NCBI GenBank assembly: GCA_028275775.1
Contig: JAPWTZ010000004.1
Coordinates: 1,940 to 33,939 of the forward strand
DNA: 32,000 nt
Origin: Candidatus Nanopusillus sp.
GTDB lineage: Archaea; Nanobdellota; Nanobdellia; Nanobdellales; Nanobdellaceae
Direction: 5' to 3'
Shown here: in pieces, positions 1,662 through 31,564 of the stretch
Numbering within the stretch: position 1 is the stretch's first letter
Layout of the letters: each line of letters starts with the position of its first letter
Position numbers and translations under genes: made by a program
The notes under the pieces: model-generated
Seen by the model: the letters and a program-made list of their open reading frames with translations, nothing else
What the model was told of the DNA's origin: nothing
Databases searched by the model: none

Positions 1662-2498
1662 ATGTTTGCACATGCTCAGGGTGAATATGATAAATCAAAA
1701 TGGATAATAGTAGGAATCCCATCTGAAATTGGTAGTTTATCTCATATAAAAAATTATATTGAGGGACCTGGATCAATTAGAGATGCATCATATAGAATAT
1801 TTTCTCCAATATTTGGGGATATAAATATGGAAGAAATATATGATTATGGTGATATAGATTTAGAAGATATAAAAGATCTAGATAAATTATATGAAAAAAT
1901 ATATAATGAAATTAAAAAAATATATAGGAAAGATAAAAAATATATATTTTTGGGAGGAGATCATTCAATAACATATCCAATATTAAAAATTGTTAAAGAA
2001 AATTGGGAAGATTTTTATTTATTATATTTTGATGCACATCCAGATATTCATCCAGATCCTTATCCAAATTATCAAAGTTTTATTTATCATTTAATAAAAG
2101 AAAATTATATCGAACCTGAAAAAATTATTTTTGTTGGTATATCTAATCTATCATTTGAAGAAAAGAATATAATAAAAGAATGGGGGATAAAATATTATGA
2201 TCCTTTATATATTTGGGATAATATAAAAGAAATATCGAGAGAAATATCAAATATATTAGAAAATAAAAATGTATATATTTCAATTGATATAGATGTATTT
2301 GATACAGGATGTGGACATTGGTTGGAAGGTATTGGAATTAGACCATATCATTATTTTAAGATTATAAAGGAATTAAGGAATGTTAATTTAATTGGTTTTG
2401 ATTTAGTAGAATTATTTTCAAATGAAGTATGTGATAATTTAGCTGCAAAAATTGTTATTGAATCAATAGCAATTTTTAATAAATTTATGCAATCTTAA
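1662..2498 (+). CDS. speB: Agmatinase / ureohydrolase family protein
   Basis: The arginase-fold metal-binding motifs GGDHSITYP, FDAHPDIH and SIDIDVFD are present. The length of 278 aa fits. Substrate assignment rests on PdaD being in the same window. Confidence 0.75.
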   Translation: MFAHAQGEYDKSKWIIVGIPSEIGSLSHIKNYIEGPGSIRDASYRIFSPIFGDINMEEIYDYGDIDLEDIKDLDKLYEKIYNEIKKIYRKDKKYIFLGGDHSITYPILKIVKENWEDFYLLYFDAHPDIHPDPYPNYQSFIYHLIKENYIEPEKIIFVGISNLSFEEKNIIKEWGIKYYDPLYIWDNIKEISREISNILENKNVYISIDIDVFDTGCGHWLEGIGIRPYHYFKIIKELRNVNLIGFDLVELFSNEVCDNLAAKIVIESIAIFNKFMQS

Positions 2499-3132
2499 AA
2501 TATGTTTGATTAATTCTTTCTAAATATACTGTTACAAATTGATAAAATGTAATATTATTTATTGAATAGCATGGTATATAATTGCATATAATATTTCCAT
2601 TTGTATTTTCTGTACATGTAATATTTCCAGATAAATTTGTTGGAAATAGAAATACAAATGTTTGATTTGAAGTACTTTCGTTACTCAAACAAAAATAATA
2701 TAAAAAATAGTAAAAATCTGAATAATAATTTTTACATATGGTTAATTTAATATAATCTAATGAATAAGCTATAGAAATTGGATATACATATGTATTGCAA
2801 TTTCCATTAAAATTTATTATTCCAAAACTATAATTATTTATTTCTGCTCTAAATGCATAAGGAAATATTGTACAATTTGGAAGTTCATTATAATATGTTT
2901 GGTTAAACTGTTCTATTTTTTCTAATGTTGTAAAATATACTGGATAATTTGGATATCCTAAACAATTTGGAGAAAATAAATCATATATTATATCCTGTTC
3001 ATATGAAAAAGATGTTTGTTCTTTATAATTTGTTAAATTTATATTAGAAAATATAGCTAATAAAATTATCATTCCAACTAAAAATAATACAATTAATATT
3101 GTTATAAATACTATAGATAATTGTTCCTTCAT
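2485..3132 (-). CDS. Membrane-anchored, sequon-rich surface protein (last gene of the 12-gene operon)
   Basis: It starts MKEQ followed by a hydrophobic helix of about 22 residues. The mature part has about 10 N-x-S/T sequons and 8 or more Cys, is rich in Tyr and Asn, and has few Lys or Glu. It lies 7 nt after the preceding gene. Confidence 0.6.
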   Translation of the reverse strand: MKEQLSIVFITILIVLFLVGMIILLAIFSNINLTNYKEQTSFSYEQDIIYDLFSPNCLGYPNYPVYFTTLEKIEQFNQTYYNELPNCTIFPYAFRAEINNYSFGIINFNGNCNTYVYPISIAYSLDYIKLTICKNYYSDFYYFLYYFCLSNESTSNQTFVFLFPTNLSGNITCTENTNGNIICNYIPCYSINNITFYQFVTVYLERINQTYFKIA

Positions 3133-3139
3133 TTATTTT

Positions 3140-4459
3140 TTATCTAATATGTATGTTTTTTCCACCTCCTCCACCTCCACCGCCAGATCCACCCCCACCA
3201 TTTTGTCCACATGAAGATTGACCAGATGGTTGCGGTACACATTGATCTGGGAAGGGTATAGTTTGTGGACATGTTGGATTATTTGGACATGCACCAGGTA
3301 AACATACAGGACATGGAGCAGAACCAATTATGCAAATATAGCATTCAATTGGTATTGAATAATAATATGGAAATGTATATGTTATTTCACAATCTTGTTG
3401 ATTTGTATTTACATTACCACAACCGTTAAGGGGTGTACATGAATATTGTTGACTTTCTAATGTACAACTTTTAGATATTACTTGATTGTTTGTTAAATTA
3501 TATGTTTCAGTACATTTATATATGCAATTTAGATAATATTGATTTGTTACATTTTCATAAAAAACTATAGAAGTAATTATTATTGTTTGTGGATATGTAT
3601 TGCCATTATAATATACATTATATTGGTTATCAGAGCATCTTAATATTACCCTGCATGCAATTTCCCAAGGATATAAACATGCTTTACATAAAGGAATATC
3701 TATACATTGATATGGAATTATTGTTTCATTACATTCAATATAAGGATTATTTGAAAATTGCTCAAAGGCTTGCACACAATTATTAGTTGTAACATGATTA
3801 TATATTTCATTATAACAATCTTGGAAAGAACATTCTGAAAATTCTCCACTTTGAGAAAATTGATATGCTAAATTGTATAAATAAAATGCAGGATTGTTTG
3901 TTATATTCGATGTAGTTGCATATGGAATTATTGAACCAGAAGAAGGACCTGTAATATTTATATATAATCCTTGAACATAAATTGGAAAATTATAATTATA
4001 TTCTCCAGAAGTTATATTACTGCAATCTCCAATAATTCCTGCTTGATAATTATTTGAAAAATTGAAAGATATATTATAAGGATAGTAATATTTATATGTA
4101 GTTAAATATTGATCCCCATAAGTTAATAAAGTTTCATATCCAGAAGATAATAAATTATTATAATATTGAAGCGCATTTTGACATGGTTGAGGTAATATAC
4201 ATCCTGGAGGAAAAGAAGCCCATTCCTCTTTTCCCCATCCATTTGTTCCAGCTATATAGGATTCTGAATAACCTGTTTGTGCTAATAATGTTTGTAAATA
4301 TCCTAAAAAATAATTTGATAATGTAGATAAAGAGGTAAATCTATTAAAAACAATATTTTGATTGTAATTATATGTTAATGCATAAAAAGATAGAAGGATT
4401 ATTAATATTGCAATTGTTAAAAATAAAACTACATAAATAACTTCTACCTGATTTTTCAT
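3140..4459 (-). CDS. Membrane-anchored Cys-rich surface protein with a Cys/Pro-rich C-terminus and poly-Gly tail
   Basis: It starts MKNQ plus a TM helix. I count about 26 Cys in 439 aa and fewer than 10 Lys, with many sequons. The C-terminus reads ...CPVCLPGACPNNPTCPQ...GGGGSGGGGGGGGKNIHIR. Its start overlaps the upstream stop by 4 nt. Confidence 0.65.
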   Translation of the reverse strand: MKNQVEVIYVVLFLTIAILIILLSFYALTYNYNQNIVFNRFTSLSTLSNYFLGYLQTLLAQTGYSESYIAGTNGWGKEEWASFPPGCILPQPCQNALQYYNNLLSSGYETLLTYGDQYLTTYKYYYPYNISFNFSNNYQAGIIGDCSNITSGEYNYNFPIYVQGLYINITGPSSGSIIPYATTSNITNNPAFYLYNLAYQFSQSGEFSECSFQDCYNEIYNHVTTNNCVQAFEQFSNNPYIECNETIIPYQCIDIPLCKACLYPWEIACRVILRCSDNQYNVYYNGNTYPQTIIITSIVFYENVTNQYYLNCIYKCTETYNLTNNQVISKSCTLESQQYSCTPLNGCGNVNTNQQDCEITYTFPYYYSIPIECYICIIGSAPCPVCLPGACPNNPTCPQTIPFPDQCVPQPSGQSSCGQNGGGGSGGGGGGGGKNIHIR

Positions 4460-5667
4460 ATTTTTAATTTAACATGTAGATATATAAATGTTAATATAAG
4501 AATAGGTGTTACTAGTCCATGTATAATTCCAAGTGCTATTAATATATTTGGTATAGATATTAAATGTATACTACTTGGTCCTCCAAATAATACTGATTCG
4601 AGGAATTCTCCAGTTATATTTTGTAATAAGATTAAAATACCAATGGAAATACCTAAAGCTTTTGTTATTACCTTTTTGCTGTTTCTAAATATTTTATAAT
4701 GTATACCCATAAAGAAAAATAATAAAGCAATTAAATATCTAGTATGTAATGCTGCAGAAGTAAAATCTGTATATAATAGATATAGTTCTCCAAAAAATAT
4801 TATTAAGACCATTGTTATAAGCAAAAAATAGTTTGTTGGTATATTATATTTTAAATTTCTATAAACTAAAATATAAATAATGATTTCATATATTGATAAA
4901 AGTATTAAGGATTCATATATATATAAATAATATTTTCCAATTAAACTACTTATAACTAAGTTTCTATATATTAATAATTGATTTAATGAAATAAAGATTT
5001 GGATTATTATAATAGAAAATATTAATAGAAAAATGTATTTTTTATATTTATAAATTTCAGAAATAATTCTAAATATTTTTGTTTTTGATAATAATATTTC
5101 ATTTCCATTAAAGTACATAACTAAGAATAAGAAAATTGCAAAAACAATAAATAATAAGGTATATATTATTTCAAAGGTATAAAGATGTAAATATGAGTAA
5201 TTAATGAGCAAAGATATTATATAGTTCATTTTTACATCAAGATCTGTAGTTGCAGAATTATAAATAAGTTCTAGGAAAAATTGTATTATAAATAATATTA
5301 TTGAGATTATATAAAATATTGATGATTTCTTTGAAATATATAAATTGTTTTCAAATAGATAATATCCCATAGAAAATGCTATAAAATAAAATATCCAATA
5401 ATTTACTATATAAGTAAATATTGATGGAAATGGAAAAGGTAAAGGCAAATTGGTGTAAATTCCAAAGATTCCAATTGGTATATATAATGGAAATATTAAT
5501 TTATATATTAAAGATGTATTCTTTGAATTTTTTAATATAAAAGATAATAAGAACAAATATACTGTACCGAAAATAATTATATTAATATTAAAGTTGCTAA
5601 TATAAGTAAAAAGTAAAAACAATATTAAATATATAAAAAATAAAATTTTATCTTCTTTTTTTACCAT
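4456..5667 (-). CDS. Polytopic integral membrane protein (about 11-12 TM helices), unknown family
   Basis: The 403 aa are almost entirely hydrophobic helices separated by short loops. The gene is translationally coupled on both sides (7 nt and 4 nt overlaps). It has no WWDYG (AglB) motif and no prepilin-peptidase DxD/GxGD motifs. Confidence 0.65.
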   Translation of the reverse strand: MVKKEDKILFFIYLILFLLFTYISNFNINIIIFGTVYLFLLSFILKNSKNTSLIYKLIFPLYIPIGIFGIYTNLPLPFPFPSIFTYIVNYWIFYFIAFSMGYYLFENNLYISKKSSIFYIISIILFIIQFFLELIYNSATTDLDVKMNYIISLLINYSYLHLYTFEIIYTLLFIVFAIFLFLVMYFNGNEILLSKTKIFRIISEIYKYKKYIFLLIFSIIIIQIFISLNQLLIYRNLVISSLIGKYYLYIYESLILLSIYEIIIYILVYRNLKYNIPTNYFLLITMVLIIFFGELYLLYTDFTSAALHTRYLIALLFFFMGIHYKIFRNSKKVITKALGISIGILILLQNITGEFLESVLFGGPSSIHLISIPNILIALGIIHGLVTPILILTFIYLHVKLKI

Positions 5668-7283
5668 ACTGTTAATTCAGCAACTAGATACCCGCCCAGG
5701 AATGGTATACCCATTGGTAAATAAATATAAGAAACATATATATTTGTATTTGGAGGTATTGGATATCCCAAACTTATAGTTTCTCCACTACCTTCATACA
5801 TATATGCATTTAGTTCTTCCACATTCCCTTTATCTGTAATACAATATGCTCTTGCCATTGCAACACCATTTCCTCCAGGATGAGGATCATAATATACTGC
5901 GGAAATTATAAATTGAGATGTATTTTGAGCTCTATCATCTATTACCCATTTAGTAATATTAAATCTATAAATTCCTTCTGCATTTGAATTTTGATTAAAT
6001 AAATAAACTAAAGGGCATTCTTTTCCAACAATAATTCCATTTACATTTTGTACACTATCGAATACACCAGTTGGACAATCTATTGTTTCTCCATTTAAAT
6101 TATATTCACATAAAGGATCTGCTGCTAAAAATACATAATCTGGTTCTCCACTTTTATTTAAAAAAGAAATATACAATCTTACTACTTCATGCCATGGATA
6201 ATCTATAAATACTTGTTGACAATTTGGAGGTATATTTACTATGCCTCTATAAAATGATCCAACAATTAATTCCTGACCTCCACATTGCTGAGAAGGACCT
6301 GAATAGCTTGTACCGAATTCTTCTTGACATATCTTATTTAAATATTGTTGTGGGATTATAAACTCTGCTAATCTATTTATATTGGTAGCAGTTTTATATA
6401 CTGGAGGTCCATAATAATAGTAAGGAATACTTGTTAAATATTGAAAACCTGCTACTGGAGTTCCAATTCCTACCCATCCAGAGAAGAATTGTGGTAATGA
6501 AAAAGTTGGTTGTGGAGTTATTGAATAACTAAAGGTTTCATAATTTGGGAATAAATTCCATTCACCTTGTGGGCAATATACAGAAGCGTTTGTAAAATTA
6601 TAACTTGGAAATATTTTTGTTAATGGTGTACACAAGCCAGTTTGTACAGCTAGAGATTGAGTCATTCCATTATATAATGTTGGTAATCCCCACAAACTTA
6701 TTGATTGAGACTGATGAAATGGCGCTGTTGCATTTACCCATCCTGCTCCATATAATGTTTGAGTTACTGGTATATTAATATTTTCTGTATAATTATCTAC
6801 AAAGAAATATGTATAATTCCATTCATACCATTGTGTACCATCTGGATCTGGAGGGGGATTCATTGAGCAAGGATCCCAATTTCCAATATTACCACCTACT
6901 ATAAACATTTGAACAACCCATCCAGTTACTGGTGGGATAAAATATATAGTTAAGTTCCATCTATTTCCATATATACTATCAAAATAATTTATTAGATCTT
7001 CTGATATATTTGTACATATATTTTGATTTATACAATATGTATCATTTCCAGAAGATGAAAAATAGGATAATAAAAATGCATAGGATAAATTAACTTTATG
7101 ATCATAAATATAAGGTAATAGATCAATGCTATTTTGAATTGTTAATGTATATTGATTTTCTACATTATATGTTTGTGTTATTTTAGAACTAGAACTGGTT
7201 GATAATAAATAAACCAAAATTATTAATAAAATTATTATTGAAATAATAATAACAAATGCTAATGTATTAATCTGATTTTTCAT
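5661..7283 (-). CDS. Large membrane-anchored surface protein (540 aa), unknown family
   Basis: It starts MKNQ plus a TM helix and an SSSS linker. The mature part is rich in Tyr, Asn, Pro, Gly and Trp, with paired Cys and many sequons. Its start overlaps the upstream stop as ATGA. Confidence 0.65.
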   Translation of the reverse strand: MKNQINTLAFVIIISIIILLIILVYLLSTSSSSKITQTYNVENQYTLTIQNSIDLLPYIYDHKVNLSYAFLLSYFSSSGNDTYCINQNICTNISEDLINYFDSIYGNRWNLTIYFIPPVTGWVVQMFIVGGNIGNWDPCSMNPPPDPDGTQWYEWNYTYFFVDNYTENINIPVTQTLYGAGWVNATAPFHQSQSISLWGLPTLYNGMTQSLAVQTGLCTPLTKIFPSYNFTNASVYCPQGEWNLFPNYETFSYSITPQPTFSLPQFFSGWVGIGTPVAGFQYLTSIPYYYYGPPVYKTATNINRLAEFIIPQQYLNKICQEEFGTSYSGPSQQCGGQELIVGSFYRGIVNIPPNCQQVFIDYPWHEVVRLYISFLNKSGEPDYVFLAADPLCEYNLNGETIDCPTGVFDSVQNVNGIIVGKECPLVYLFNQNSNAEGIYRFNITKWVIDDRAQNTSQFIISAVYYDPHPGGNGVAMARAYCITDKGNVEELNAYMYEGSGETISLGYPIPPNTNIYVSYIYLPMGIPFLGGYLVAELTVW

Positions 7284-8104
7284 TTTAGATAATATAAAAG
7301 AATAACTAGGCCTATTATTATAATTACTATTACTATTGCTACTGGTAAAATTAAGTTAACATTATTACTTTTATTACTTATATTTGGTTGTGGATAAATT
7401 AATTGTTGGGTATTATTTGTTTGATTTACTTGAGTCTGATTTATGCATTCAAATACTCCTGTACATGATATATATATAATATTTGGTGGTGGACATTGCT
7501 GTAAAAATTCTTGATATAATTGATTTAATGAATAATTATATGGACATCTAAACCAATCTCCTTCAAATGATAAGTTTTCTGGACAATATCCACATTGATA
7601 TTCTTTTTGATATGCAGATAAAATAGTTTGATAAGAAGCATTACCTGTCAAATAAGATTGGGGTATATATGGTGGATTAAAACATGGATAAACCTGATTT
7701 GAACATGGTTGATAATACCATGGAGTATTTGAGCAATTTAATAAACTATTACAATATACTCTTGGAAGTATAATTAAATCTTCATATGCTGATGGAGGAA
7801 TTAATGCATATGGACTAACCAATGTTCCATTTGGATATTCACAATAACTACTATTTACATATATTAATCCATAATGGGCACAAAAAGAATATTGTGGAGG
7901 TACTTCGTTTTCATAATATTGTATAGCATCAAAATATGTACCATTTACAATACAATAAGAACCTGTGCTGTTTGTATAATATGTTCCTCCACCATATTCA
8001 CAATAAACTGCTAATGGATTTATCATGGAATGTATATTATAAAGTAAAGATATAAAAATAATTATAAATAATATTAATATTTTTTTATTGTGCGAGAGTA
8101 ACAT
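7280..8104 (-). CDS. Cys-rich surface protein with an N-terminal signal, a C-terminal TM anchor and a possible DUF333-like motif
   Basis: The N-terminal hydrophobic segment is followed by NPLAVYCEYGGGTYY...GSYCIVNGTYFDAIQYY. This resembles the NPA-x-VYC..GG...C..DG DUF333 signature, and a degenerate second copy follows. The C-terminus LILPVAIVIVIIIIGLVILLYYLK is a TM anchor. The true start may be slightly downstream, given the 20 nt overlap. Confidence 0.55.
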   Translation of the reverse strand: MLLSHNKKILILFIIIFISLLYNIHSMINPLAVYCEYGGGTYYTNSTGSYCIVNGTYFDAIQYYENEVPPQYSFCAHYGLIYVNSSYCEYPNGTLVSPYALIPPSAYEDLIILPRVYCNSLLNCSNTPWYYQPCSNQVYPCFNPPYIPQSYLTGNASYQTILSAYQKEYQCGYCPENLSFEGDWFRCPYNYSLNQLYQEFLQQCPPPNIIYISCTGVFECINQTQVNQTNNTQQLIYPQPNISNKSNNVNLILPVAIVIVIIIIGLVILLYYLK

Positions 8105-9671
8105 TTTGGATTGCTACAACTACATAAGGAAATGATAAGCCATAAGGAGATTGATCAAATGGTACGTATACATATCCATCTTGCATCCAATAAACACCTC
8201 CACACGACCATTCTGATGATAAAGAAAATTCTTGCTCTAGTTCCTGATTGCAAAGCTGATAATTAAAATAATATTCGCTGCATGCAGTAAGAGGGCATAT
8301 AGAACTATAACATATATAGCTTACACCAATTTCACCATTTTGAGCAACAAGTATGCATCCAGATCTCTCCCCCCATTGGTTTTCAAATATCCAACATTTA
8401 GGAGTTCCATACATTTCTTGACATAGTTGAGAATTTATGGTATAGCCAACTAATAGCATGACATGTCCCGAAGTTACATATTCTTCAGGATATATATTTG
8501 GATTAGATCCACCTGTCCCTCCCATCAATCCAGCAACTACTAATGGTCCATAACATAATAAATCTTGGATTATTTGTTGATCGGATAAAGGTCCATTTTG
8601 TGAAAGAAAGATAACATCTTTTGGATAATACAATGGAGAGCTAGGTCCATTATAATTAAAATTACATACATCACCCGGATAGCTATCATAGTTCTGATAT
8701 TCTTCTTGTGGACAATGATTTCCTAAAGTAGATTCATAATAGCTCCATCCAGGATCGGGTGGTATACCGTATTGAGATGTATAATATATGCCATAATATA
8801 AACCAGATGCTGTGGGAATACCATTTTCATTAAAAATAGTCTCACTACCACGACAACCGCTATTGTACTTGCAATAACTTGGAGCATTTGGATAACCATT
8901 ATTACATTCTATTGCTAGATATGCTGGAGATAATTGTAATCCTTCATTTGGTTCGTTATTTCTTATCATATATACTGAAGCAATTCCATTTGAACTAGCA
9001 AAAGCCCAACAATCTCCGCAATCTCCCTGATCCCCTATTGGAGGTATATAGCTATTTCCATTTACATCACCCCAGAAAAAACTTGCCTGTCCAGTATATT
9101 TAACTAGACATTGAGCATTTGGATTAATATTATTATTGTTATTTCCTTGATTATTTCCTCCATTATTATTACTACTTCCCCCATTGTTTTGATTATTATT
9201 GTTTTGATTGTTTTCTGGAGTTATATATATAAGAGTTCCATTTGGTAAATATTCATTTAATATTGTAATTGAATTTTGAAGGTTTGTTGTAATAAAAACA
9301 GTATTATTTGTACTAACAAGATATATATAATTGTTTGGATACAGAAAACTTACATTTTGATTATTATTATATAATGTTACATTCTTGTAAAAATTAATTG
9401 TATAATTGTTATTATTATATTGTATTATTAATTCAGTACCATTTGCAAATAATATAACTCCATTTGGTATATTAACTTTTACATAAGTAGTGCCTTGAAT
9501 ACTATTTATTGTATTCTCTAAATTTTGTAAATTATTAATAAAATTTTCAAATATTAAATTTTCTTGTTGTTTTTTAATATTCATAGAATATTGATAATAT
9601 ATTATAAAAGCTAAAGATATAATTACCAATATTATTGCTACTGAAAGCAAATTTAATTGATATCTTTTCAT
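8085..9671 (-). CDS. Membrane-anchored papain-family (C1A) cysteine peptidase
   Basis: It has an N-terminal TM helix, a Cys-free beta-rich module of about 120 aa, an Asn/Gly linker (nt 9114-9215) and then a papain fold. The catalytic signature is complete. GDQGDCGDCWAFASS supplies Gln215 and Cys221 (nt 9009-9011), SGHVMLLVGY supplies His403, and ENQWGERSG supplies Asn431. Confidence 0.8.
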   Translation of the reverse strand: MKRYQLNLLSVAIILVIISLAFIIYYQYSMNIKKQQENLIFENFINNLQNLENTINSIQGTTYVKVNIPNGVILFANGTELIIQYNNNNYTINFYKNVTLYNNNQNVSFLYPNNYIYLVSTNNTVFITTNLQNSITILNEYLPNGTLIYITPENNQNNNNQNNGGSSNNNGGNNQGNNNNNINPNAQCLVKYTGQASFFWGDVNGNSYIPPIGDQGDCGDCWAFASSNGIASVYMIRNNEPNEGLQLSPAYLAIECNNGYPNAPSYCKYNSGCRGSETIFNENGIPTASGLYYGIYYTSQYGIPPDPGWSYYESTLGNHCPQEEYQNYDSYPGDVCNFNYNGPSSPLYYPKDVIFLSQNGPLSDQQIIQDLLCYGPLVVAGLMGGTGGSNPNIYPEEYVTSGHVMLLVGYTINSQLCQEMYGTPKCWIFENQWGERSGCILVAQNGEIGVSYICYSSICPLTACSEYYFNYQLCNQELEQEFSLSSEWSCGGVYWMQDGYVYVPFDQSPYGLSFPYVVVAIQNVTLAQ

Positions 9672-9707
9672 TATGAGTTAATAATATTTATAAAATTTTA
9701 AAAATTT

Positions 9708-10148
9708 TTAACTTGGATTTTCTATATAAATTGTTACTTCTGTTGGAGAAGTTTTTTCAACAAGTAGTGGTATTTTTTCATTTGGATTTCCATATGATAA
9801 TTCATAAAATAATCCAGAAGTATAATATTGAATCATACTATTTGTTGTATTTATTATTACATTGCATGGCAATGTATAATTGTAGTATTCATCATATATA
9901 TAACAACTTAATAAATTATTATTTGCATAAATATAATTTAAATACTTGTTTATTTCAATATTAATATAAATTTCTGTTCCAGTATTTGAATAACATACTC
10001 TTTCAATTGTTGTATACAAATTCTGGCAAGATGATATATCTTGATATAATAATTGAGTTTGATTATTTATACTTGAAAATTTAAAATATAAATATAAAGA
10101 CAATCCAAAAGCAATAATTGTTACAATTATCCAAAACCACTTTTCCAT
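9708..10148 (-). CDS. Small membrane-anchored protein, paralogue family member (pilin-like architecture)
   Basis: The 146 aa have an N-terminal hydrophobic helix, an SCQNL motif soon after it and a C-terminal beta-strand EVTIYIENPS. The architecture is shared with the three genes upstream. Confidence 0.55.
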   Translation of the reverse strand: MEKWFWIIVTIIAFGLSLYLYFKFSSINNQTQLLYQDISSCQNLYTTIERVCYSNTGTEIYINIEINKYLNYIYANNNLLSCYIYDEYYNYTLPCNVIINTTNSMIQYYTSGLFYELSYGNPNEKIPLLVEKTSPTEVTIYIENPS

Positions 10149-10150
10149 TT

Positions 10151-10564
10151 TTATCCTTGAACATTAATATAAACATAATTTCCTGCCGAATATATTAATA
10201 TATATTCTCCAGGATTTATATTATAATTACAATTTTGCATTACTACATTTGGATCTATACTACTTACATTATTTATTAAATCCTGACATGTAAATGGTTC
10301 TCCTTGATAGTTAATTAAATAGCAAAGACCCTGAGCTTTTTTATAATAACATGCCACTACATCCATTGCAACATCTTGTATCGAATTTACATTTGTTTCT
10401 ACTACAGTTTGTGTACTATTATATTTAGGCATTATACTACTAATGTAAGAAGTTATATTTCCTCTTAATAAAAATATTATTCCTAAAATTACTACTGTAA
10501 CAATTATTCCTATAATTATTAAAAATGTATAATTAACTGGAAGTTCTTGAGACTTTATTGCCAT
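10151..10564 (-). CDS. Small membrane-anchored protein, paralogue family member (pilin-like architecture)
   Basis: The 137 aa have a short polar leader and a hydrophobic helix of about 22 residues. They also carry a TCQDL motif and the C-terminal strand YILIYSAGNYVYINVQG. Confidence 0.55.
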   Translation of the reverse strand: MAIKSQELPVNYTFLIIIGIIVTVVILGIIFLLRGNITSYISSIMPKYNSTQTVVETNVNSIQDVAMDVVACYYKKAQGLCYLINYQGEPFTCQDLINNVSSIDPNVVMQNCNYNINPGEYILIYSAGNYVYINVQG

Positions 10565-11034
10565 ATTACAATATAACTATTGTTGTATATTATAAATATA
10601 CTATTGTATGGATAAATATTTCCATCACTATTATTTAAATGAAATATAATATTATTTGGATTAAATGTGGTATAATTTTGTATATATTGAATTAATATTG
10701 ATGAATTAAGAACAATATTCTCATCTATATAAACATCATAACATATATTAAATAATTTATTTGTATTTACATTATTATTGTAGCAATTTAATATTAATCC
10801 TGTTATATCTGAATAAATTGTATCATTACTTTCATTTGTATACATAACATTTATTGCTGAAGGATAATATTTTTCACATGATGGAGAAAAACCACCTTGT
10901 GATATTAATGTTTGACAATAATATGCTTGAGAATTGCCAAAAAACTTTGTATAAATAATATCTAATATAACTGCAACAGATATTATTGCTATTATAATAA
11001 TAAATACAGTATCTATTGCTATATCATTCTTCAT
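10555..11034 (-). CDS. Small membrane-anchored protein, paralogue family member (pilin-like architecture)
   Basis: The 159 aa start MKND plus a hydrophobic helix. They carry a YCQTL motif and the C-terminal strand IFIIYNNSYIVIWQ. The start overlaps the upstream stop by 4 nt. Confidence 0.55.
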   Translation of the reverse strand: MKNDIAIDTVFIIIIAIISVAVILDIIYTKFFGNSQAYYCQTLISQGGFSPSCEKYYPSAINVMYTNESNDTIYSDITGLILNCYNNNVNTNKLFNICYDVYIDENIVLNSSILIQYIQNYTTFNPNNIIFHLNNSDGNIYPYNSIFIIYNNSYIVIWQ

Positions 11035-11315
11035 ATATAATTAATACTTCCGTTATAAATATATATAATTCTATAGCCTGCAGGTATTGTTATTCCATTT
11101 ATTGTACAATTTTCATTAAGAAATACTTTAATATTAATTATTTCCTGAAAACTTTTATTATATAGATTTTCTAACTGTTGGCAATTAATTGTTTGTATAT
11201 TATTTCCACTCAAATTATTTTTTATATTATAAATATAATAAAAAGAAAATAAACTAGCAGCTATAATTAATATAAAAGTTATTATAATCCAATATATTGA
11301 TTGTTGCAATTTCAT
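11031..11315 (-). CDS. Small membrane-anchored protein, paralogue family member (pilin-like architecture)
   Basis: The 94 aa start MKLQQ plus a hydrophobic helix. They carry an NCQQL motif and the C-terminal strand RIIYIYNGSINYI. The start overlaps the platform gene stop as ATGA. Confidence 0.55.
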   Translation of the reverse strand: MKLQQSIYWIIITFILIIAASLFSFYYIYNIKNNLSGNNIQTINCQQLENLYNKSFQEIINIKVFLNENCTINGITIPAGYRIIYIYNGSINYI

Positions 11316-13282
11316 AATTGTATATTTGTTGGTAAATATGGGCCAAATACTGTATATACTATCAATATTCCTATTATTGAAAATATTACATAAAATATTG
11401 TTCCAAATAATAAATTTCTACCTATATAATATGATGTCATTGTATTATCAAATCCATATTTTATTCCAGCACTCATATATGAAGTTATTATTACATATTC
11501 TATAAAAAATATACCAATTATTGCTTCAAAAAATGTTGGTGGTATTAAATTATATAGATTAAATGTATTTACAATGAAATTGAATAAGTTTGTTCCTCCA
11601 CCAAGGCCAAAAGATTGGTCTATTAATTGAAAGAAATATGCAAGTGCAAAAAGCATTGAAACTACTCCATTATTAAAGACCGTAACCATTCCAGAAATTA
11701 ATGGTACTAGATCTCTTGATGTCATATCTATTAATCCAATTATTTCATTTAATATTTTTCTTACACTATATCTTATGTTATTTACATTTTCTAAGTTTAT
11801 TGATATATTATATGCAATCTTTGATAAAACTTCAGGACCTTTTGATGCAGAAGTAACTAACAATTGCATAGATTCTCTTACTAATTTTGATGGATATAAA
11901 TTTAATGAGCCAATTTTTGGATCAAATATAGAAGTACCTAAATCATAACCTCTTCTTAAATTATATAATGTTGTTTTTAGGAAATTTTCCATAACTCCAG
12001 ATGATTTTATTATTTTATAATTATAATATGTTTTTTCAATTACTATTTCAAATGGATATCCATCTTCCAATAATGATGCAAATTCATATACAACAATTGG
12101 AAACTCATTTTCTATTTCTTCAATTTGATATATTTTTTTAACTTTTTGGAAAGATGTTAAATAATAATAAGATCCTATACCTAAACCCAATCCTAAAGGT
12201 AATGTTAAAGTTAAAACAGAATATATTAATGCTCTATCCTGATAAACTATATTTAAATAATCACTCAAAAATCCTTGTGGAATAAATGTAATCCTTATAG
12301 CTAGAGAAACTAAATGATATATTCCCAAAACTGCAATTGATCCTAATATTATTGAAATTATTATTGCTGGAACTTCCTTATTTCCAATTTTAAATTTTCC
12401 AGGTTTTGGTAAATCTCTTGCTAAGGATAAATCTGGAACAGAAAATGCAAATGGATTTTTTGATAAGAAATTTTGAATTATTAAAAATGTAATAACTGGT
12501 AAAATTATTATATATGAAAATGCTATGAAATAGAAACTTACTGTATTTAATAAAAATACGGATATTATTGGTAACATCATCAAACTAACTATTGGCATCA
12601 TTACTAAGAAAGATACTATAACTGTTGCTGGTTCTTTTAAAGCATCTACATATAACTGGGATTTTTCTAGGGATTTCTTTAATACCCATCCCAAAATTCT
12701 ATCTAATAATTTATTTATATCATCAATAGATGTTTTATATTTAATGTTTACAATATGTGTCATTGCATATACAAAATCTGGACTTAAATAAAACCATCTT
12801 CTCTGATAATATTCTAATGCAGATTCTATATCTTTAAATTTATTTGTTTCTAAGTTATATAATAATGATCTAAAGTCTGTTGCAATATAACCTCTCATAT
12901 AATATGCTACATATTTTATTCCATTCTCTAAATTAGGATTTCTTTTTAGATATAATGATAAATATAGAATTATCCATACAATTTCTGATGTTACCTGAAT
13001 TCTAACTACTTGTGTATAGAATATTGGATAATATGCGAAATAGAATGATAAAATTAATAAAGATATTAACAAAGAAAAAGCAAATTGAAAGCTTACAAAA
13101 CTTAAAATAAAATATATGATTATAGAAAATAATATAAGAGTTATTACGGAAGAGAATATATTATCTGGATTTGTATTTAGTCTATTTAACCATAAATGAA
13201 ATGCATATTTTTTATATATTGGACCAGGAGCTCTTAGTTTTATTAAATTAAAATTATTATAAAAATATTCAAAAAAACTCAT
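11312..13282 (-). CDS. Polytopic membrane protein resembling FlaJ/TadC/PilC platform proteins (two T2SSF-like domains)
   Basis: The 656 aa contain two repeats, each a soluble helical segment of about 120 aa followed by TM helices. The second reads EFPIVVYEFASLLEDGYPFE...LYPSKLVRESMQLLVTSASKGPEVLSKIA, which matches the T2SSF pattern (lP..l..la.ll.aG...PS..l.....l....GG.l...L). The first is a weaker copy. The gene is adjacent to pilin-like genes. This call is from memory, not from an HMM. Confidence 0.55.
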   Translation of the reverse strand: MSFFEYFYNNFNLIKLRAPGPIYKKYAFHLWLNRLNTNPDNIFSSVITLILFSIIIYFILSFVSFQFAFSLLISLLILSFYFAYYPIFYTQVVRIQVTSEIVWIILYLSLYLKRNPNLENGIKYVAYYMRGYIATDFRSLLYNLETNKFKDIESALEYYQRRWFYLSPDFVYAMTHIVNIKYKTSIDDINKLLDRILGWVLKKSLEKSQLYVDALKEPATVIVSFLVMMPIVSLMMLPIISVFLLNTVSFYFIAFSYIIILPVITFLIIQNFLSKNPFAFSVPDLSLARDLPKPGKFKIGNKEVPAIIISIILGSIAVLGIYHLVSLAIRITFIPQGFLSDYLNIVYQDRALIYSVLTLTLPLGLGLGIGSYYYLTSFQKVKKIYQIEEIENEFPIVVYEFASLLEDGYPFEIVIEKTYYNYKIIKSSGVMENFLKTTLYNLRRGYDLGTSIFDPKIGSLNLYPSKLVRESMQLLVTSASKGPEVLSKIAYNISINLENVNNIRYSVRKILNEIIGLIDMTSRDLVPLISGMVTVFNNGVVSMLFALAYFFQLIDQSFGLGGGTNLFNFIVNTFNLYNLIPPTFFEAIIGIFFIEYVIITSYMSAGIKYGFDNTMTSYYIGRNLLFGTIFYVIFSIIGILIVYTVFGPYLPTNIQL

Positions 13283-13286
13283 TACA

Positions 13287-14051
13287 TTAGCTTGTTGTGC
13301 TTGGTATATTATTTAACTGGGAATATGGTACTTGCAATAAGAATTGACATAATGGCATTCCATTGGCATTATTATTTATACCCAATGCTGCGCAATTTCC
13401 AGTTACTGTTAATACTCCATTATTAACTATTAAATTCAAATTACATCCATCTGCAGTATTATAATAGTTAATAATCTTTAATAATGCACCAAATACCTGG
13501 TTTGTAATCCATGTTGGTAATTGTGCAGAACATTGTACTGGACCTGGATTTAATATTGAAGATGGAGAAGAAATTTGAATATTTGCTTGTCCAGATGCTA
13601 CATTAAATGATGTAGTGGAAGAATAATTTCCGAATACATAACTTGTTGCTTGTTCTGGGCTATAATATAAATTATCAATATAATTTTGACATTCTAGATA
13701 CATACAATCTAGAGGTGTTATTGTATATCCTTCATATTGACATTGACTAGAAGAACCTCCATATAATTGTAATAATACACTGCATGGGACAGCATTTGAA
13801 CAAATATAATATCCCGGACTTACTTGTACAAGTCCATTTCCTATATCTTCATACTTTGTACAAAATGTTGTTGGTGAACTTGAACAATAACTTGAACAAT
13901 CTGAAACTGCCTGTTGTATTTGTGTATTTGATATCGTACTAATCTTTGATGATTGCTGCTGGAATAACTTAATTACAACAACTGCTACTACTAACATTAT
14001 TATTATTACAAATATTAACTGTACAGCCATATCTATACCCCTCCTTTTCAT
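13287..14051 (-). CDS. Pilin-like secreted or surface protein (first gene of the operon)
   Basis: MKRRG-IDMAVQLIFVIIIMLVVAVVVIKLF is a short basic leader ending in Gly followed by a hydrophobic helix. This looks like a class III (prepilin) signal but is not a perfect FlaFind match. The mature part has 12 Cys and is rich in Ser, Thr, Asn and Gln. Confidence 0.5.
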   Translation of the reverse strand: MKRRGIDMAVQLIFVIIIMLVVAVVVIKLFQQQSSKISTISNTQIQQAVSDCSSYCSSSPTTFCTKYEDIGNGLVQVSPGYYICSNAVPCSVLLQLYGGSSSQCQYEGYTITPLDCMYLECQNYIDNLYYSPEQATSYVFGNYSSTTSFNVASGQANIQISSPSSILNPGPVQCSAQLPTWITNQVFGALLKIINYYNTADGCNLNLIVNNGVLTVTGNCAALGINNNANGMPLCQFLLQVPYSQLNNIPSTTS

Positions 14052-23552: not shown

Positions 23553-24368
23553 ATGGTATATGACTTATTTATATCTATAGGTTATTATATTGGTTTTTTA
23601 GTATTAGGTGGCATAATAGGTTATTTTATTGGATGGATAGTATATAAAGTATTGAACTGGCTATTTGCAAAATACATAAAAATAGAGAGTGTATATGAAA
23701 AATTAAAATCAACATTTAGCAAAATGCCAGAAATAAATGTAGCAGTCCTATTATCATATTTGGTTGGAATAATATTGGGAATATTAGTATTTAATAGTAT
23801 ATTATCATTAATGCCAAGTGTATTAACAGCAAATCAGTATTATTACATATCTAATATAGTACAATTGACAATGACAGTTTCTTCAACATTATTATTAATA
23901 TCAATAGTTGTATTAATAATAGCAGCGGGTGTAATATTTTCCATATTCTTTACATCATATCTATATATATTAATTGAAGGTTATAATGAATATGTAGCAG
24001 AATTATTGAAACTATTATTATTCTTAGGATTTGTATGGATAATAACATATTATTCTTTAGAATTATTAGGATTCCAATATACACTATTCGATAATATTAT
24101 AGGTGTATTTGTAATATTATCAATTGGATTAATTGTAATGAAATATATAACAGAAAATATAAGTGAAAATACATATTATAAAAATGTAAAACCATTTATC
24201 CAAGTATTTATATATTCAATATTTGTTATATCATCACTATCAGTATTAACTGTTGGATATTCAAATATTTCAGCAAGTGTAGAAAGTATATTTGCATGGG
24301 GCTTTGTAATATTATTTGTACTAACATTAATACCAGTATTGGTTAAGGCAATAAAAGAATCAGAATAA
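23553..24368 (+). CDS. Integral membrane protein (about 7 TM helices), unknown family, inserted between rps12 and rps7
   Basis: The 271 aa are hydrophobic throughout. A TATA-like TTTATATAA lies 20-28 nt upstream of the ATG. I recognise no motif. Confidence 0.6.
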   Translation: MVYDLFISIGYYIGFLVLGGIIGYFIGWIVYKVLNWLFAKYIKIESVYEKLKSTFSKMPEINVAVLLSYLVGIILGILVFNSILSLMPSVLTANQYYYISNIVQLTMTVSSTLLLISIVVLIIAAGVIFSIFFTSYLYILIEGYNEYVAELLKLLLFLGFVWIITYYSLELLGFQYTLFDNIIGVFVILSIGLIVMKYITENISENTYYKNVKPFIQVFIYSIFVISSLSVLTVGYSNISASVESIFAWGFVILFVLTLIPVLVKAIKESE

Positions 24369-25036: not shown

Positions 25037-25522
25037 ATGAACCCGCGGAGTCTAGTACCAAAAAAAGTTTTCTTTACTTCTGGTATAGGTATATCAGATG
25101 ATCCATTATTAAGTTTTGAATATGCATTGAGAGATGCAAAAATAGAGAAGTTTAATTTAGTTCCAGTATCAAGTATAGCACCGCCAAATATAAAAATTAT
25201 AGACATAGATGAAGGATTAAAATATTTAAAGGCAGGTCAGATTGTATTTTGTGTTTTATCTAGATTTACTTCAAATGAAGAAGGTAAAGAAATATTTTCA
25301 TCAGTTGGAGTAGCATTACCTAAGGATAAAAAATATAATGGATATTTTACAGAATACCATGGATATTATACTGGAAAAGAGGAAGGATATGCAAAAAATA
25401 TGGCAAAAAATATGTTAAAGTCTATGTATAATATAGAAATAGATAAGGAATTTGAAATATTTAAAAAAGCTACTGTAAAGGATTATACAACTGTTGTATC
25501 TGCTGCAGTTTTTATTTTATAA
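25037..25522 (+). CDS. pdaD: Pyruvoyl-dependent arginine decarboxylase
   Basis: The signature is VPKKVFFTSGIG...SFEYALRDAKIEKFNLVPVSSIAPP. The self-cleavage Ser-Ser pair is at nt 25169-25174. The 161 aa length is typical of PdaD. Confidence 0.8.
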   Translation: MNPRSLVPKKVFFTSGIGISDDPLLSFEYALRDAKIEKFNLVPVSSIAPPNIKIIDIDEGLKYLKAGQIVFCVLSRFTSNEEGKEIFSSVGVALPKDKKYNGYFTEYHGYYTGKEEGYAKNMAKNMLKSMYNIEIDKEFEIFKKATVKDYTTVVSAAVFIL

Positions 25523-26350
25523 TTATTCGAATATTTTTTGATATATTTCTTTTAATTGACTTGGAACAACGTGAGTATATATTTGTGTAATATTTAATGA
25601 ACTATGACCAAGTATTTCTTGTATATATCTTATATCAACACCTTTTGATAATAATGTTGTCGCAAGAGAGTGTCTTAATACATGTGGAGTTACTTTTTTG
25701 TTTATTCCAGCTTTTTTTGCAATATTTTTTATAATTCTTTCTACTTGTCTTGATGATAATGGAAATATATTTTCAGTATTTATTTTATTTATATAATCCT
25801 TTAATTCATTTAATAATTCTTTTGGTATTGGTACTATTCTTTCTTTTCCCCCTTTTCCATATACTTTTACAAAACCCTCTTCAAAAATTATATCATTCTT
25901 TTTTATTTTTACTAATTCTGAAACTCTTACTCCTGTATAAAATAGGAATTTAATAATTAGTTTATCTCTATAATTTTCAGCATTTTCTATTAATTTATTT
26001 AATTCATCATATGTAATAAATTTTGGCAATCTTTTATCTACCTTTGGAGCTTTTATTTGTTTTGCCAAACTTTCATTATCTAAAAATTTTAAAAATGATG
26101 ATAGAGCTCTAACATATAATCTTAATGAATTTGAATCCAATTTTTTCTTAACCTTTATTTCAGCTAAAAATTTTAGGATTAAATTTTTATCTAAAGAATT
26201 ATTAATAGATTTTGTATCTGTAATAATTATTCCATTATTTATTAGGAATTCTAAAAACCTCTTTATTATACCTGAATATGTTTTTATTGTATTTTTAGAT
26301 TTTCCCTGTATTTCTAACCATACTTTATATTCTTCAATAATTTCATTCAT
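25523..26350 (-). CDS. xerA: Tyrosine recombinase, XerA/XerC/D-like
   Basis: It has an N-terminal SAM-like core-binding domain. The catalytic residues are present in YTGVRVSEL (Arg), HVLRHSLAT (HxxR) and LGHSSLNITQIYTHV (His and Tyr). Confidence 0.8.
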   Translation of the reverse strand: MNEIIEEYKVWLEIQGKSKNTIKTYSGIIKRFLEFLINNGIIITDTKSINNSLDKNLILKFLAEIKVKKKLDSNSLRLYVRALSSFLKFLDNESLAKQIKAPKVDKRLPKFITYDELNKLIENAENYRDKLIIKFLFYTGVRVSELVKIKKNDIIFEEGFVKVYGKGGKERIVPIPKELLNELKDYINKINTENIFPLSSRQVERIIKNIAKKAGINKKVTPHVLRHSLATTLLSKGVDIRYIQEILGHSSLNITQIYTHVVPSQLKEIYQKIFE

Positions 26351-31424: not shown

Positions 31425-31457
31425 TTTATAATTTCTTTTTATCATAAAATTTATATT

Positions 31458-31530
31458 GGGCCCGTAGCTTAGTTGGTAAAGCGTCGGGCTCTTAACCCGA
31501 AGATCGGGGGTTCGAATCCCCCCGGGCCCG
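31458..31530 (+). tRNA. tRNA-Lys (anticodon CUU)
   Basis: A hand-folded 73 nt cloverleaf. The acceptor is GGGCCCG/CGGGCCC, the D stem GCTT/AAGC and the anticodon stem TCGGG/CCCGA. The anticodon loop is C-U-CUU-A-A, the variable loop is 5 nt, and the T arm is GGGGG-TTCGAAT-CCCCC. The discriminator is G and no CCA is encoded. TTTATAAT lies about 25 nt upstream and a T-run at 31533-31539 lies downstream. Confidence 0.92.
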
Positions 31531-31564
31531 GGTTCTTTTATATATAATTATTAAATAATATTTT

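Follow-up and report, generated by a model that had tools for sequence, protein, structure and literature searches.

How DPANN archaea such as the Nanoarchaeota breach the robust surface layer (S-layer) of their hosts, and of what proteins their attachment organelle is made, is an acknowledged open question (PMC11420986). A locus of Candidatus Nanopusillus sp. raises it from the side of the genes: within a stretch of 32,000 nucleotides (nt) (GenBank assembly GCA_028275775.1, contig JAPWTZ010000004.1, positions 1,940 to 33,939 of the forward strand; hereafter the window, to whose first letter all positions refer), a papain-type (C1A) cysteine protease is encoded inside a block of 12 genes that also encodes a relative of the platform proteins of type IV filaments. 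An original prediction, made from the letters alone, had described this gene as a membrane-anchored papain-family protease built on a pilin-like module, a candidate for cutting a host S-layer or for maturing neighbouring surface proteins. The reading that we favour, with a probability of about 0.5, is that of a tethered extracellular C1A peptidase that acts at the host interface together with a type IV filament-like apparatus. Its parts differ in strength. The sequence and the structural model make an active, extracellular and tethered C1A peptidase very probable; for a functional coupling to the filament-like apparatus the odds would be even or a shade better; host S-layer or surface proteins as substrates are a tentative proposal that invites more doubt than belief.

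The gene and its catalytic domain comprise the following features.

8085..9671, minus strand: protease open reading frame (ORF), ATG start, 528 amino acids (ORF list, PF00112 match, about 40 full-length orthologues).
8085-8087, minus strand: stop codon of this ORF.
8088..9110, minus strand: C1A catalytic domain, residues 188-528, with 17 Cys (Pfam, AlphaFold (AF2) model, Foldseek).
9027..9029, minus strand: codon of Gln215, oxyanion hole (motif and alignments).
9009..9011, minus strand: codon of Cys221, nucleophile (invariant in alignments).
8463..8465, minus strand: codon of His403, general base (invariant in alignments).
8379..8381, minus strand: codon of Asn431, which orients the His (motif and alignments).

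The papain-family assignment passed the profile search: Pfam PF00112 (Peptidase_C1) matches residues 206-438 with 53.6 bits (E=4.1e-14), above the curated gathering cut-off of 20.7 bits. The same domain is found in the orthologues and in the metagenomic protein P0040, and a sequence search of the PDB retrieved falcipain-2, cathepsins K/L/H, papain and dipeptidyl-peptidase I. Public annotation already records the family, as 'Peptidase C1A subfamily' for the orthologue of Candidatus Nanobsidianus stetteri Nst1 (Nst1_643) and as Peptidase C1A for that of Nanopusillus acidilobi (Nps_00495, arCOG03611); our literature search found no publication discussing this nanoarchaeal protease. About 40 full-length orthologues, with 55-90% identity, come from hot-spring metagenomes, N. 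stetteri and Nanopusillus, and a scan of species-representative genomes found the gene in N. acidilobi 7A (complete), N. stetteri Nst1, YN1 (complete) and several metagenome-assembled genomes (MAGs) of Nanopusillaceae. These proteins form an isolated clade: among 1.84 billion representatives, HMMER returned five at E<=1e-28, all nanoarchaeal, and the best match outside the clade (5.8e-15) covers only about 60 residues around the catalytic Cys motif. The family is therefore too isolated for a phylogeny of horizontal transfer to be resolved from these sequences. The remark that papain-type proteases are uncommon in archaea was overstated, as a 2023 survey reported C1A peptidases across all major archaeal lineages including DPANN, but in low copy number and mostly single (PMC10380794).

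The catalytic signature is complete, with all four residues where the original prediction had placed them: Gln215 and Cys221 lie within GDQGDCGDCWAFASS, His403 within SGHVMLLVGY and Asn431 within ENQWGERSG. Across 24 aligned homologues, no substitution occurs at C221, H403 or N431, and Q215 reaches at least 90% conservation. With distant canonical C1 proteins included, in an alignment of 121 sequences, the invariant positions are C218, C221, W222 and H403, while Q215 and N431 are conserved to at least 90%. Over about 50 orthologues the catalytic set is invariant or nearly so, Cys, His and Asn being kept in 11 of the 12 genomic loci and in all 40 metagenomic orthologues. An AlphaFold run on 24 close orthologues gave a poor model (predicted local distance difference test, pLDDT, 53.8) and was replaced by a run on the deep alignment of 121 sequences, whose model has a mean pLDDT of 79.8 and a predicted template modelling score of 0.70, with most of the catalytic domain at 85-97. 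Foldseek found 155 matches to this model in the PDB at E<=1e-3 (target template modelling score 0.40-0.63). The top 50, all with a probability of 1.00, are exclusively C1A enzymes (cathepsins C, F, K, L, S, X and B, falcipain, cruzain and rhodesain), so that the structure prediction recovers the expected two-lobed papain fold. As also anticipated, there is no I29-type propeptide (no Pfam match at E<=1); in the model, the region upstream of the catalytic domain consists of a helix, a beta module and a linker. By family, predicted fold and catalytic residues, the protein is a genuine C1A peptidase, very probably an active one.

This upstream region forms a stalk, made of three parts.

9501..9671, minus strand: N-terminal segment, residues 1-57, with an MKRY leader, a hydrophobic stretch at about residues 8-28 and an amphipathic continuation (hydropathy, AF2, HHalign).
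9243..9500, minus strand: Cys-free beta module, residues 58-143, with 7-8 strands and a helix at 131-141 (AF2).
9111..9242, minus strand: disordered linker rich in Asn and Gly, residues 144-187, within which lies the imperfect AAT/GGA triplet tract at 9114-9215 (tandem-repeat finder, AF2).

The hydropathy window gives a single N-terminal hydrophobic helix at residues 3-30, and the AF2 model has one continuous, alpha1-like helix at residues 2-57 (pLDDT 75-95), followed by strands between residues 62 and 128 (pLDDT about 70-88). The model thus contains an alpha1 helix of about 50 residues with a hydrophobic first half and, together with the beta head, this fits the pilin blueprint described in PMC8179133. 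Residues 1-187 are devoid of Cys, the first one being C188, and all 17 Cys belong to the catalytic domain. Conversely, six of the seven N-X-S/T sequons are in or at the edge of the stalk, five of them in the beta module (77, 89, 97, 106 and 122) and the sixth (N144) at the linker boundary. This distribution is consistent with a stalk that is extracellular and glycosylated and carries an enzyme rich in disulfides. Related C1 proteins have Sec signals, and the catalytic domain is probably located outside the cell. The linker tract (9114-9215) encodes 34 residues, ENNQNNNNQNNGGSSNNNGGNNQGNNNNNINPNA, with imperfect period-9 and period-12 repeats according to the tandem-repeat finder, and residues 143-177 are disordered in the model (pLDDT <50). 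The transmembrane helix, the Cys-free beta module and the Asn/Gly linker of the original prediction were all recovered, as was the suspected variation of the linker between strains, since its length ranges from 20 to 75 amino acids over 12 loci. The proposed resemblance of the beta strands to small paralogues encoded just upstream did not hold: the best pairwise BLAST match among these proteins is g146 at E=0.4-1.5, and profile-profile comparison with HHalign gives a probability below 2% without the transmembrane helix. We rejected this homology as a likeness of composition, I/Y/N-rich in a genome of 25% guanine-cytosine (GC).

The catalytic domain itself carries an unusual segment.

8202..8366, minus strand: hypervariable Cys-rich insertion, residues 436-490, in the R domain, a beta hairpin and two helices (alignment to canonical C1).

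Alignment to canonical prokaryotic C1 domains indicates that the WGxxGY strand motif resumes at W495..G499-Y500, after an insertion of about 55 amino acids. The segment past N431 was also considered as a C-terminal extension, which we rejected because the insertion lies inside the C1 fold, with WGxxGY downstream. Its length varies from 36 to 61 amino acids among orthologues, and the most divergent lineage (L015) has the canonical 7-residue loop instead. Identity within the insertion is only 31-41%, even between genomes whose stalks are 93-98% identical, whereas the rest of the protein shows 75-98%. Both non-synonymous (dN) and synonymous (dS) divergence are raised, which suggests cassette-like replacement rather than point-wise positive selection. 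The insertion site is equivalent to the Trp177-Trp181 loop of papain, which we take to border the primed side of the cleft. The insertion would thus be well placed to influence substrate access, and it probably tunes target recognition.

The protease gene is the seventh of a minus-strand block of 12 genes extending from 14051 to 2485, in the order g254, g656, g94, g159, g137, g146, protease, g274, g540, g403, g439 and g215.

13287..14051, minus strand: g254, Cys-rich, canonical class III-type N-terminus, candidate filament subunit (leader motif).
11312..13282, minus strand: g656, polytopic, diverged platform protein of T2SSF/FlaJ/TadC type, arCOG01814 (relatives, family profile, arCOG).
10151..11315, minus strand: g137, g159 and g94, three small pilin-like candidates, each with a hydrophobic helix and a short leader of MK type (weak Pfam/NCBIfam hints).
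9708..10148, minus strand: g146, small single-helix protein containing Cys (YN1 fusion, P0040 match).
9672..9707, minus strand: AT-rich 36-nt spacer in which a TATA-like T/A box precedes the ATG of the protease by about 23-31 nt (conserved across 10 loci).
7280..8104, minus strand: g274, with a signal sequence, a DUF333-like Cys domain, a Cys-rich ectodomain and a C-terminal transmembrane anchor (overlaps the protease stop by 20 nt).
2485..7283, minus strand: g540, g403 (polytopic), g439 and g215, the rest of the syntenic block.

The genes of the block overlap or are separated by at most 7 nt, with the sole exception of the 36-nt gap before the protease. Eleven further distinct loci, in which protease identity falls as low as 35%, show the 12 genes in identical order and with the same flanking housekeeping genes; they include those of the complete genomes of N. 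acidilobi 7A and YN1. The spacer suggests an internal promoter with a leaderless transcript, which would split the block into g254-g146 and protease-g215. A sigma-70 promoter scan, irrelevant for archaea, was discarded, as it found 28 promoters for 24.5 expected by chance. In N. stetteri Nst1 (L006, APJZ01000007.1), the block is broken after a truncated g439 (196 amino acids) and g215 is inverted about 4.6 kilobases away, owing to either a rearrangement or an assembly problem in this single-cell-derived draft.

Ten of the 12 products have one N-terminal hydrophobic helix right after a leader of 3-5 residues, and the other two are polytopic membrane proteins. Besides g254, six products including the protease begin with MK-x(1-3)-Q followed by a hydrophobic helix; among them, g540, g439 and g215 have MK-x-Q leaders. 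The polytopic g656 has no direct Pfam match. However, PF00482 (T2SSF) is present in relatives that share about 26% identity with it (E=1e-51 to 1e-58) and is also detected in 6 of 13 members of the g656 family (best 5e-9). Furthermore, the family profile matches the cytoplasmic domain of GspF/EpsF (2vma) at E=0.008, and arCOG01814 is shared by g656 and an annotated T2SS-F gene that adjoins a FlaI-type ATPase gene. On these data, g656 belongs, although diverged, to the platform proteins of type IV filament systems. The N-terminus of g254 reads M-[KR]-[KR]-R-[GA] followed by IDMAVQLIFVIII, that is, K/R-R-G/A and then I/V/L, as in class III signals. Two further features of the block concern cysteines: g656 and g403 have none, and g439 (3140-4459, minus strand) has 26, together with a C-terminal poly-Gly run (GGGGSGGGGGGGGKNIHIR) and a variable C-terminus (409-458 amino acids among orthologues).

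Two clues tie the protease to particular neighbours. The first comes from YN1 (AP031373.1, L014:9164-10903), where a single ORF of 579 amino acids runs from g146 through a beta-rich segment and a Pro/Ser linker into the C1 domain. The full g146 is present at 63% identity and the C1 domain at 41% identity, and the helix and beta stalk proper to the protease are missing. P0040 is the YN1 fusion sequence from residue 36 and is 59% identical to g146 (E=7e-42). As the catalytic domain of YN1 is carried by a g146-type protein, the two kinds of stalk can be viewed as interchangeable carriers. The beta-rich segment of the fusion (about residues 147-245) is rich in Ser/Thr and Cys, and it has no counterpart in the window protein and no Pfam match.

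The second clue concerns g274. Its DUF333 domain (PF03891) is sub-threshold in the window protein (12.5 bits for a cut-off of 25) and in the matches of 9 of 12 orthologues (best E=3.4e-4). Nevertheless, HHalign aligns the N-terminal domain of g274 to the DUF333 pro-region of two unrelated metagenomic C1 peptidases, P0041 and P0106, with a probability of 93.9% (E=1.6e-7). In these DUF333-C1 fusions, the DUF333-type Cys domain and the C1A domain are combined as in the g274/protease pair, the DUF333 being an N-terminal pro-region of the same chain; in the window it belongs to a separate, C-terminally anchored protein whose gene overlaps that of the protease. This makes g274 a candidate trans-acting partner or regulator of the protease, as an inhibitor or a chaperone, and a separate, co-translated DUF333 protein is a possible answer to how an enzyme devoid of I29 is regulated.

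The protease is also the fastest-diverging gene of the block. Its identity is 59-82% where g656 reaches 93-97% and the small proteins 79-98%, and its gene-wide omega is 0.22-0.39, compared with about 0.10 for g656, whose neighbours diverge much faster than its 93-97% identity among Nanopusillus genomes. These values indicate that the protease is under purifying, comparatively relaxed selection.

What is known of these organisms gives such an enzyme a possible place. N. acidilobi has almost no biosynthesis and lives attached to Acidilobus (PMC4935971). In YN1, the attachment organelle consists of a cone, a portal and a 6.6 nm filament, and the host membrane is drawn through the S-layer to the portal; its component proteins are unknown according to the authors (PMC11420986). 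The filament of YN4 measures 8.2 nm and pushes the host S-layer aside (bioRxiv 2026.06.04.730037); in both symbionts it passes through a local opening in that layer. Moreover, high non-synonymous diversity has been reported for nanoarchaeal surface proteins and FlaJ/TadC homologues, and surface and type IV pilus genes of nanoarchaea are known to diversify (PMC6142677). In the mechanism that we propose, the stalk would act as a modular-pilin carrier, or would at least co-localise the enzyme with the apparatus in the membrane, and would place the catalytic domain 10-30 nm from the symbiont membrane. The protease would then cut proteins at the symbiont-host interface, most likely host S-layer or surface proteins, and cleavage would clear a passage for the contact structure and liberate peptides. 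In g274, the DUF333-like ectodomain probably replaces the missing propeptide, as an inhibitor or chaperone acting in trans. The link to the apparatus is supported by the strict synteny with the platform gene, the class III leader of g254 and the YN1 fusion; the role at the host interface is supported by the fastest divergence of the block, the hypervariable insertion and the variable linker.

Several observations weigh against this reading. The whole analysis is in silico. The protease leader is MK[RK][YNDSL] followed by Q, so position -1 is Y, N, D, S or L (G only in P0025) and a class III signal, with its short basic leader and canonical G/A/S at -1, is not present. We found no solved pilin or archaellin matching the N-terminal module, nor any significant fold or profile match. 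With HHalign, the N-terminal 70 or so amino acids of the protease do align to g540 (90.4%, E=1.4e-6), as do those of g540 to g439 (89%), but such scores are inflated by the composition of transmembrane helices. The pilin-like module of the original prediction is thus retained for its shape, a 55-residue helix and a small beta domain, but not for a canonical -1 residue or a known relative. Display from a filament fares likewise: it gains contextual support from a conserved operon with a platform and a class III protein, but lacks a canonical leader and a solved pilin match. The candidate subunits are also elusive. No Pfam pilin family matches g254, and the pilin families sought in Pfam and NCBIfam for g254 and the small proteins were rejected, since only weak matches driven by transmembrane segments were obtained (Phage_coatGP8, Holin_BlyA; Flp1_like at E=0.005 in 3 of 18, TIGR04205 at E=0.046). 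There is no assembly ATPase gene in the operon or the window, VirB11-type ATPase genes being located elsewhere in the N. acidilobi genome, and no prepilin peptidase gene in the window or annotated in N. acidilobi. According to Makarova et al., the A24 peptidase is missing from two nanoarchaea, including Nst1, and the pilins of nanoarchaea escaped identification (PMC4858521). The co-culture proteome of N. acidilobi contains no product of the 12-gene operon; as many membrane and low-abundance proteins were missed there too, we count this absence as uninformative and not as negative evidence. The g146 fusion occurs in one lineage only (YN1, P0040 being the same sequence), and our literature search returned nothing on the function of DUF333.

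Two departures from the catalytic signature belong to the same side. In Nanopusillus sp. RSNP5 (L010, JAPYVP010000001.1, L010:10001-11557), the catalytic Cys codon TGT is replaced by TAT (Tyr) at residue 238; this is one G-to-A change in a single MAG consensus, in an orthologue that is otherwise intact, and is due either to an inactive allele occurring in nature or to an error in the consensus. In the sub-lineage of L003, L004, P0038 and P0039, the oxyanion Gln and its neighbours are replaced (DQGDCG to E[ST]KFCG) and Trp433 is changed to Phe, the Cys, His and Asn being kept; this sub-lineage has the longest linker, 75 amino acids and Gly/Ser-rich. The loss of catalytic residues that the original prediction had named as a sign of a pseudo-protease is encountered in these cases, but not in the large majority of loci described above.

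The alternative that survives best is a plain nutritional protease held by a type II signal anchor at the cell surface or in the pseudo-periplasm, where it would digest peptides from the environment or set free by the host for an organism unable to make amino acids, its position in the operon reflecting shared envelope regulation and not a filament. The missing pilin match and prepilin peptidase just mentioned suit it well, as do a long hydrophobic segment (about 21 residues) that lacks both a signal-peptidase site and a canonical prepilin-peptidase site and the fact that prokaryotic C1A enzymes are often secreted multidomain hydrolases. Nanopusillus and YN1, moreover, lack amino-acid biosynthesis (PMC4935971, PMC11420986). 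However, strict synteny of 12 genes with a T2SSF platform and the fusion to g146 in YN1 would be hard to obtain by chance, a cassette-like insert and the fastest evolution of the block are unexpected for a bulk digestive enzyme, and no peptide transporter is encoded nearby. We regard this alternative as unlikely, though it deserves to be taken seriously.

Less probable still is that the protease is directed at the symbiont itself, processing g254, g274, g540, g439 and g215 or opening the symbiont S-layer for assembly of the filament or portal. Several secreted or anchored proteins share its operon and are translationally coupled to it, its tether length would hold it near its own envelope, and in a genome with no recognisable prepilin peptidase these proteins may need other processing. 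However, its presumed substrates in the operon are 80-97% identical while the enzyme and its insert diverge fast, which is the opposite of what is usual for enzyme-substrate pairs that co-evolve under purifying selection. Moreover, class III leaders are removed on the cytoplasmic face, whereas the predicted position of the catalytic domain is extracellular. For the same topological reason, a disulfide-rich domain outside and a cleavage site on the cytoplasmic face, we rejected the protease as a substitute prepilin peptidase. Finally, a pseudo-protease or adhesin that keeps the C1 fold for binding host surface ligands with little or no catalysis would agree with the Tyr of L010, the replaced Gln and Trp433 of L003, P0038 and P0039 and an insert suited to recognition, but it is very improbable given the near-universal retention of the catalytic residues in loci, metagenomic orthologues and the 121-sequence alignment, and the single nucleotide change, in one MAG consensus, behind the L010 case.

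The tethered peptidase acting with the filament-like apparatus can be extended into a fuller scenario, which we consider improbable in this complete form. The operon would encode the intercellular filament of 6.6-8.2 nm, or a pseudopilus serving it, and the protease would be its modular tip or effector, cutting a local hole in the host S-layer through which the host membrane would be drawn to the portal and a cytoplasmic bridge formed. In such a scenario, the insert and the linker would set the host range and g274 would keep the enzyme latent until contact.

Comparison with known systems shows what is shared and what is particular. With other C1A peptidases (cathepsins K/L/F/X, falcipain-2, cruzain and prokaryotic multidomain C1A enzymes), the window protease shares PF00112, the motifs CG(D/S)CWAF, GH..LLVGY and NxWG, and the two-lobed fold. 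Unlike them, it has a membrane helix, a beta stalk and a low-complexity linker in place of I29, as well as extra insertions in the L domain and the Cys-rich insertion of 36-61 amino acids between NxWG and WGxxGY. A parallel in architecture is provided by modular type IV pilins such as PilB and PilC of Streptococcus sanguinis (PMC8179133), which follow the same blueprint: a hydrophobic alpha1 helix (about 50 residues) bears a small beta head, onto which an effector module is grafted by way of a linker; the window protease, like them, is encoded beside a platform protein and other pilin-like genes. In contrast to these pilins, it is archaeal, has a 4-residue leader without Gly at -1, is only putatively incorporated in a filament and occurs in genomes with no known prepilin peptidase. 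The effector also differs, being papain-type here, while the peptidase module listed for bacterial modular pilins is of another type (IPR030392).

Two archaeal systems are also comparable. The Sulfolobus bindosome and archaeal class III exoproteins combine non-structural cargo bearing a pilin-type N-terminus with a small filament-like base machinery, made of a platform and small pilin-like proteins (bioRxiv 2026.04.22.720090). However, the cargo of the bindosome, sugar-binding proteins, has canonical PibD sites and is not encoded together with its machinery, whereas the protease lies inside the operon and has a non-canonical site. The SPEARE proteins of Nanohaloarchaeota are likewise membrane-anchored, extracytoplasmic proteins with a protease domain from a DPANN ectosymbiont, for which degradation of the host S-layer was proposed (PMC6642349). 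They reach 8,553 amino acids, combine serine-protease with adhesion, toxin and restriction domains, and are reported to be absent from Nanoarchaeota (PMC6642349). There is no sequence relationship between them and the window protein, which is small, papain-type and encoded in a pilus-like operon.

The window as a whole is an archaeal chromosome segment of about 25% GC and has, besides the block, genes for rpoH, a split rpoB, rpoA'/A'', L30e, S12, S7, L1, L10, L11, Spt5 and FtsZ. Between the S12 and S7 genes of the rpo/ribosomal operon, a polytopic membrane protein of 271 amino acids is encoded (23553-24368, plus strand); it belongs to no Pfam family and weakly matches (E=0.025) the transmembrane region of small-conductance mechanosensitive channels. 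An arginase-family (agmatinase-like) gene (1662-2498, plus strand) and a pyruvoyl-dependent arginine decarboxylase gene (25037-25522, plus strand) constitute a polyamine route kept in a genome without most biosynthesis. The window also contains a tyrosine recombinase gene of the Phage_integrase family, XerA-like (25523-26350, minus strand), and a tRNA-Lys(CTT) gene (31457-31531, plus strand).

If the link to the filament is wrong, the protein is still a well-supported, although ordinary and already annotated, surface protease. What is new is a C1A enzyme on a pilin-style carrier in a deeply conserved archaeal operon of type IV filament-like character, together with the carrier swap in YN1, a DUF333-type partner in trans and the hypervariable insertion. 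DUF333 gains its first functional hypothesis, as a pro-region or partner of C1A peptidases. For the breach of the host S-layer and the make-up of the attachment organelle, the 12-gene locus can be nominated as a testable candidate, present in the cultured N. acidilobi 7A and YN1. If our reading is true, it would extend the principle of modular pilins to archaea and to a proteolytic effector.

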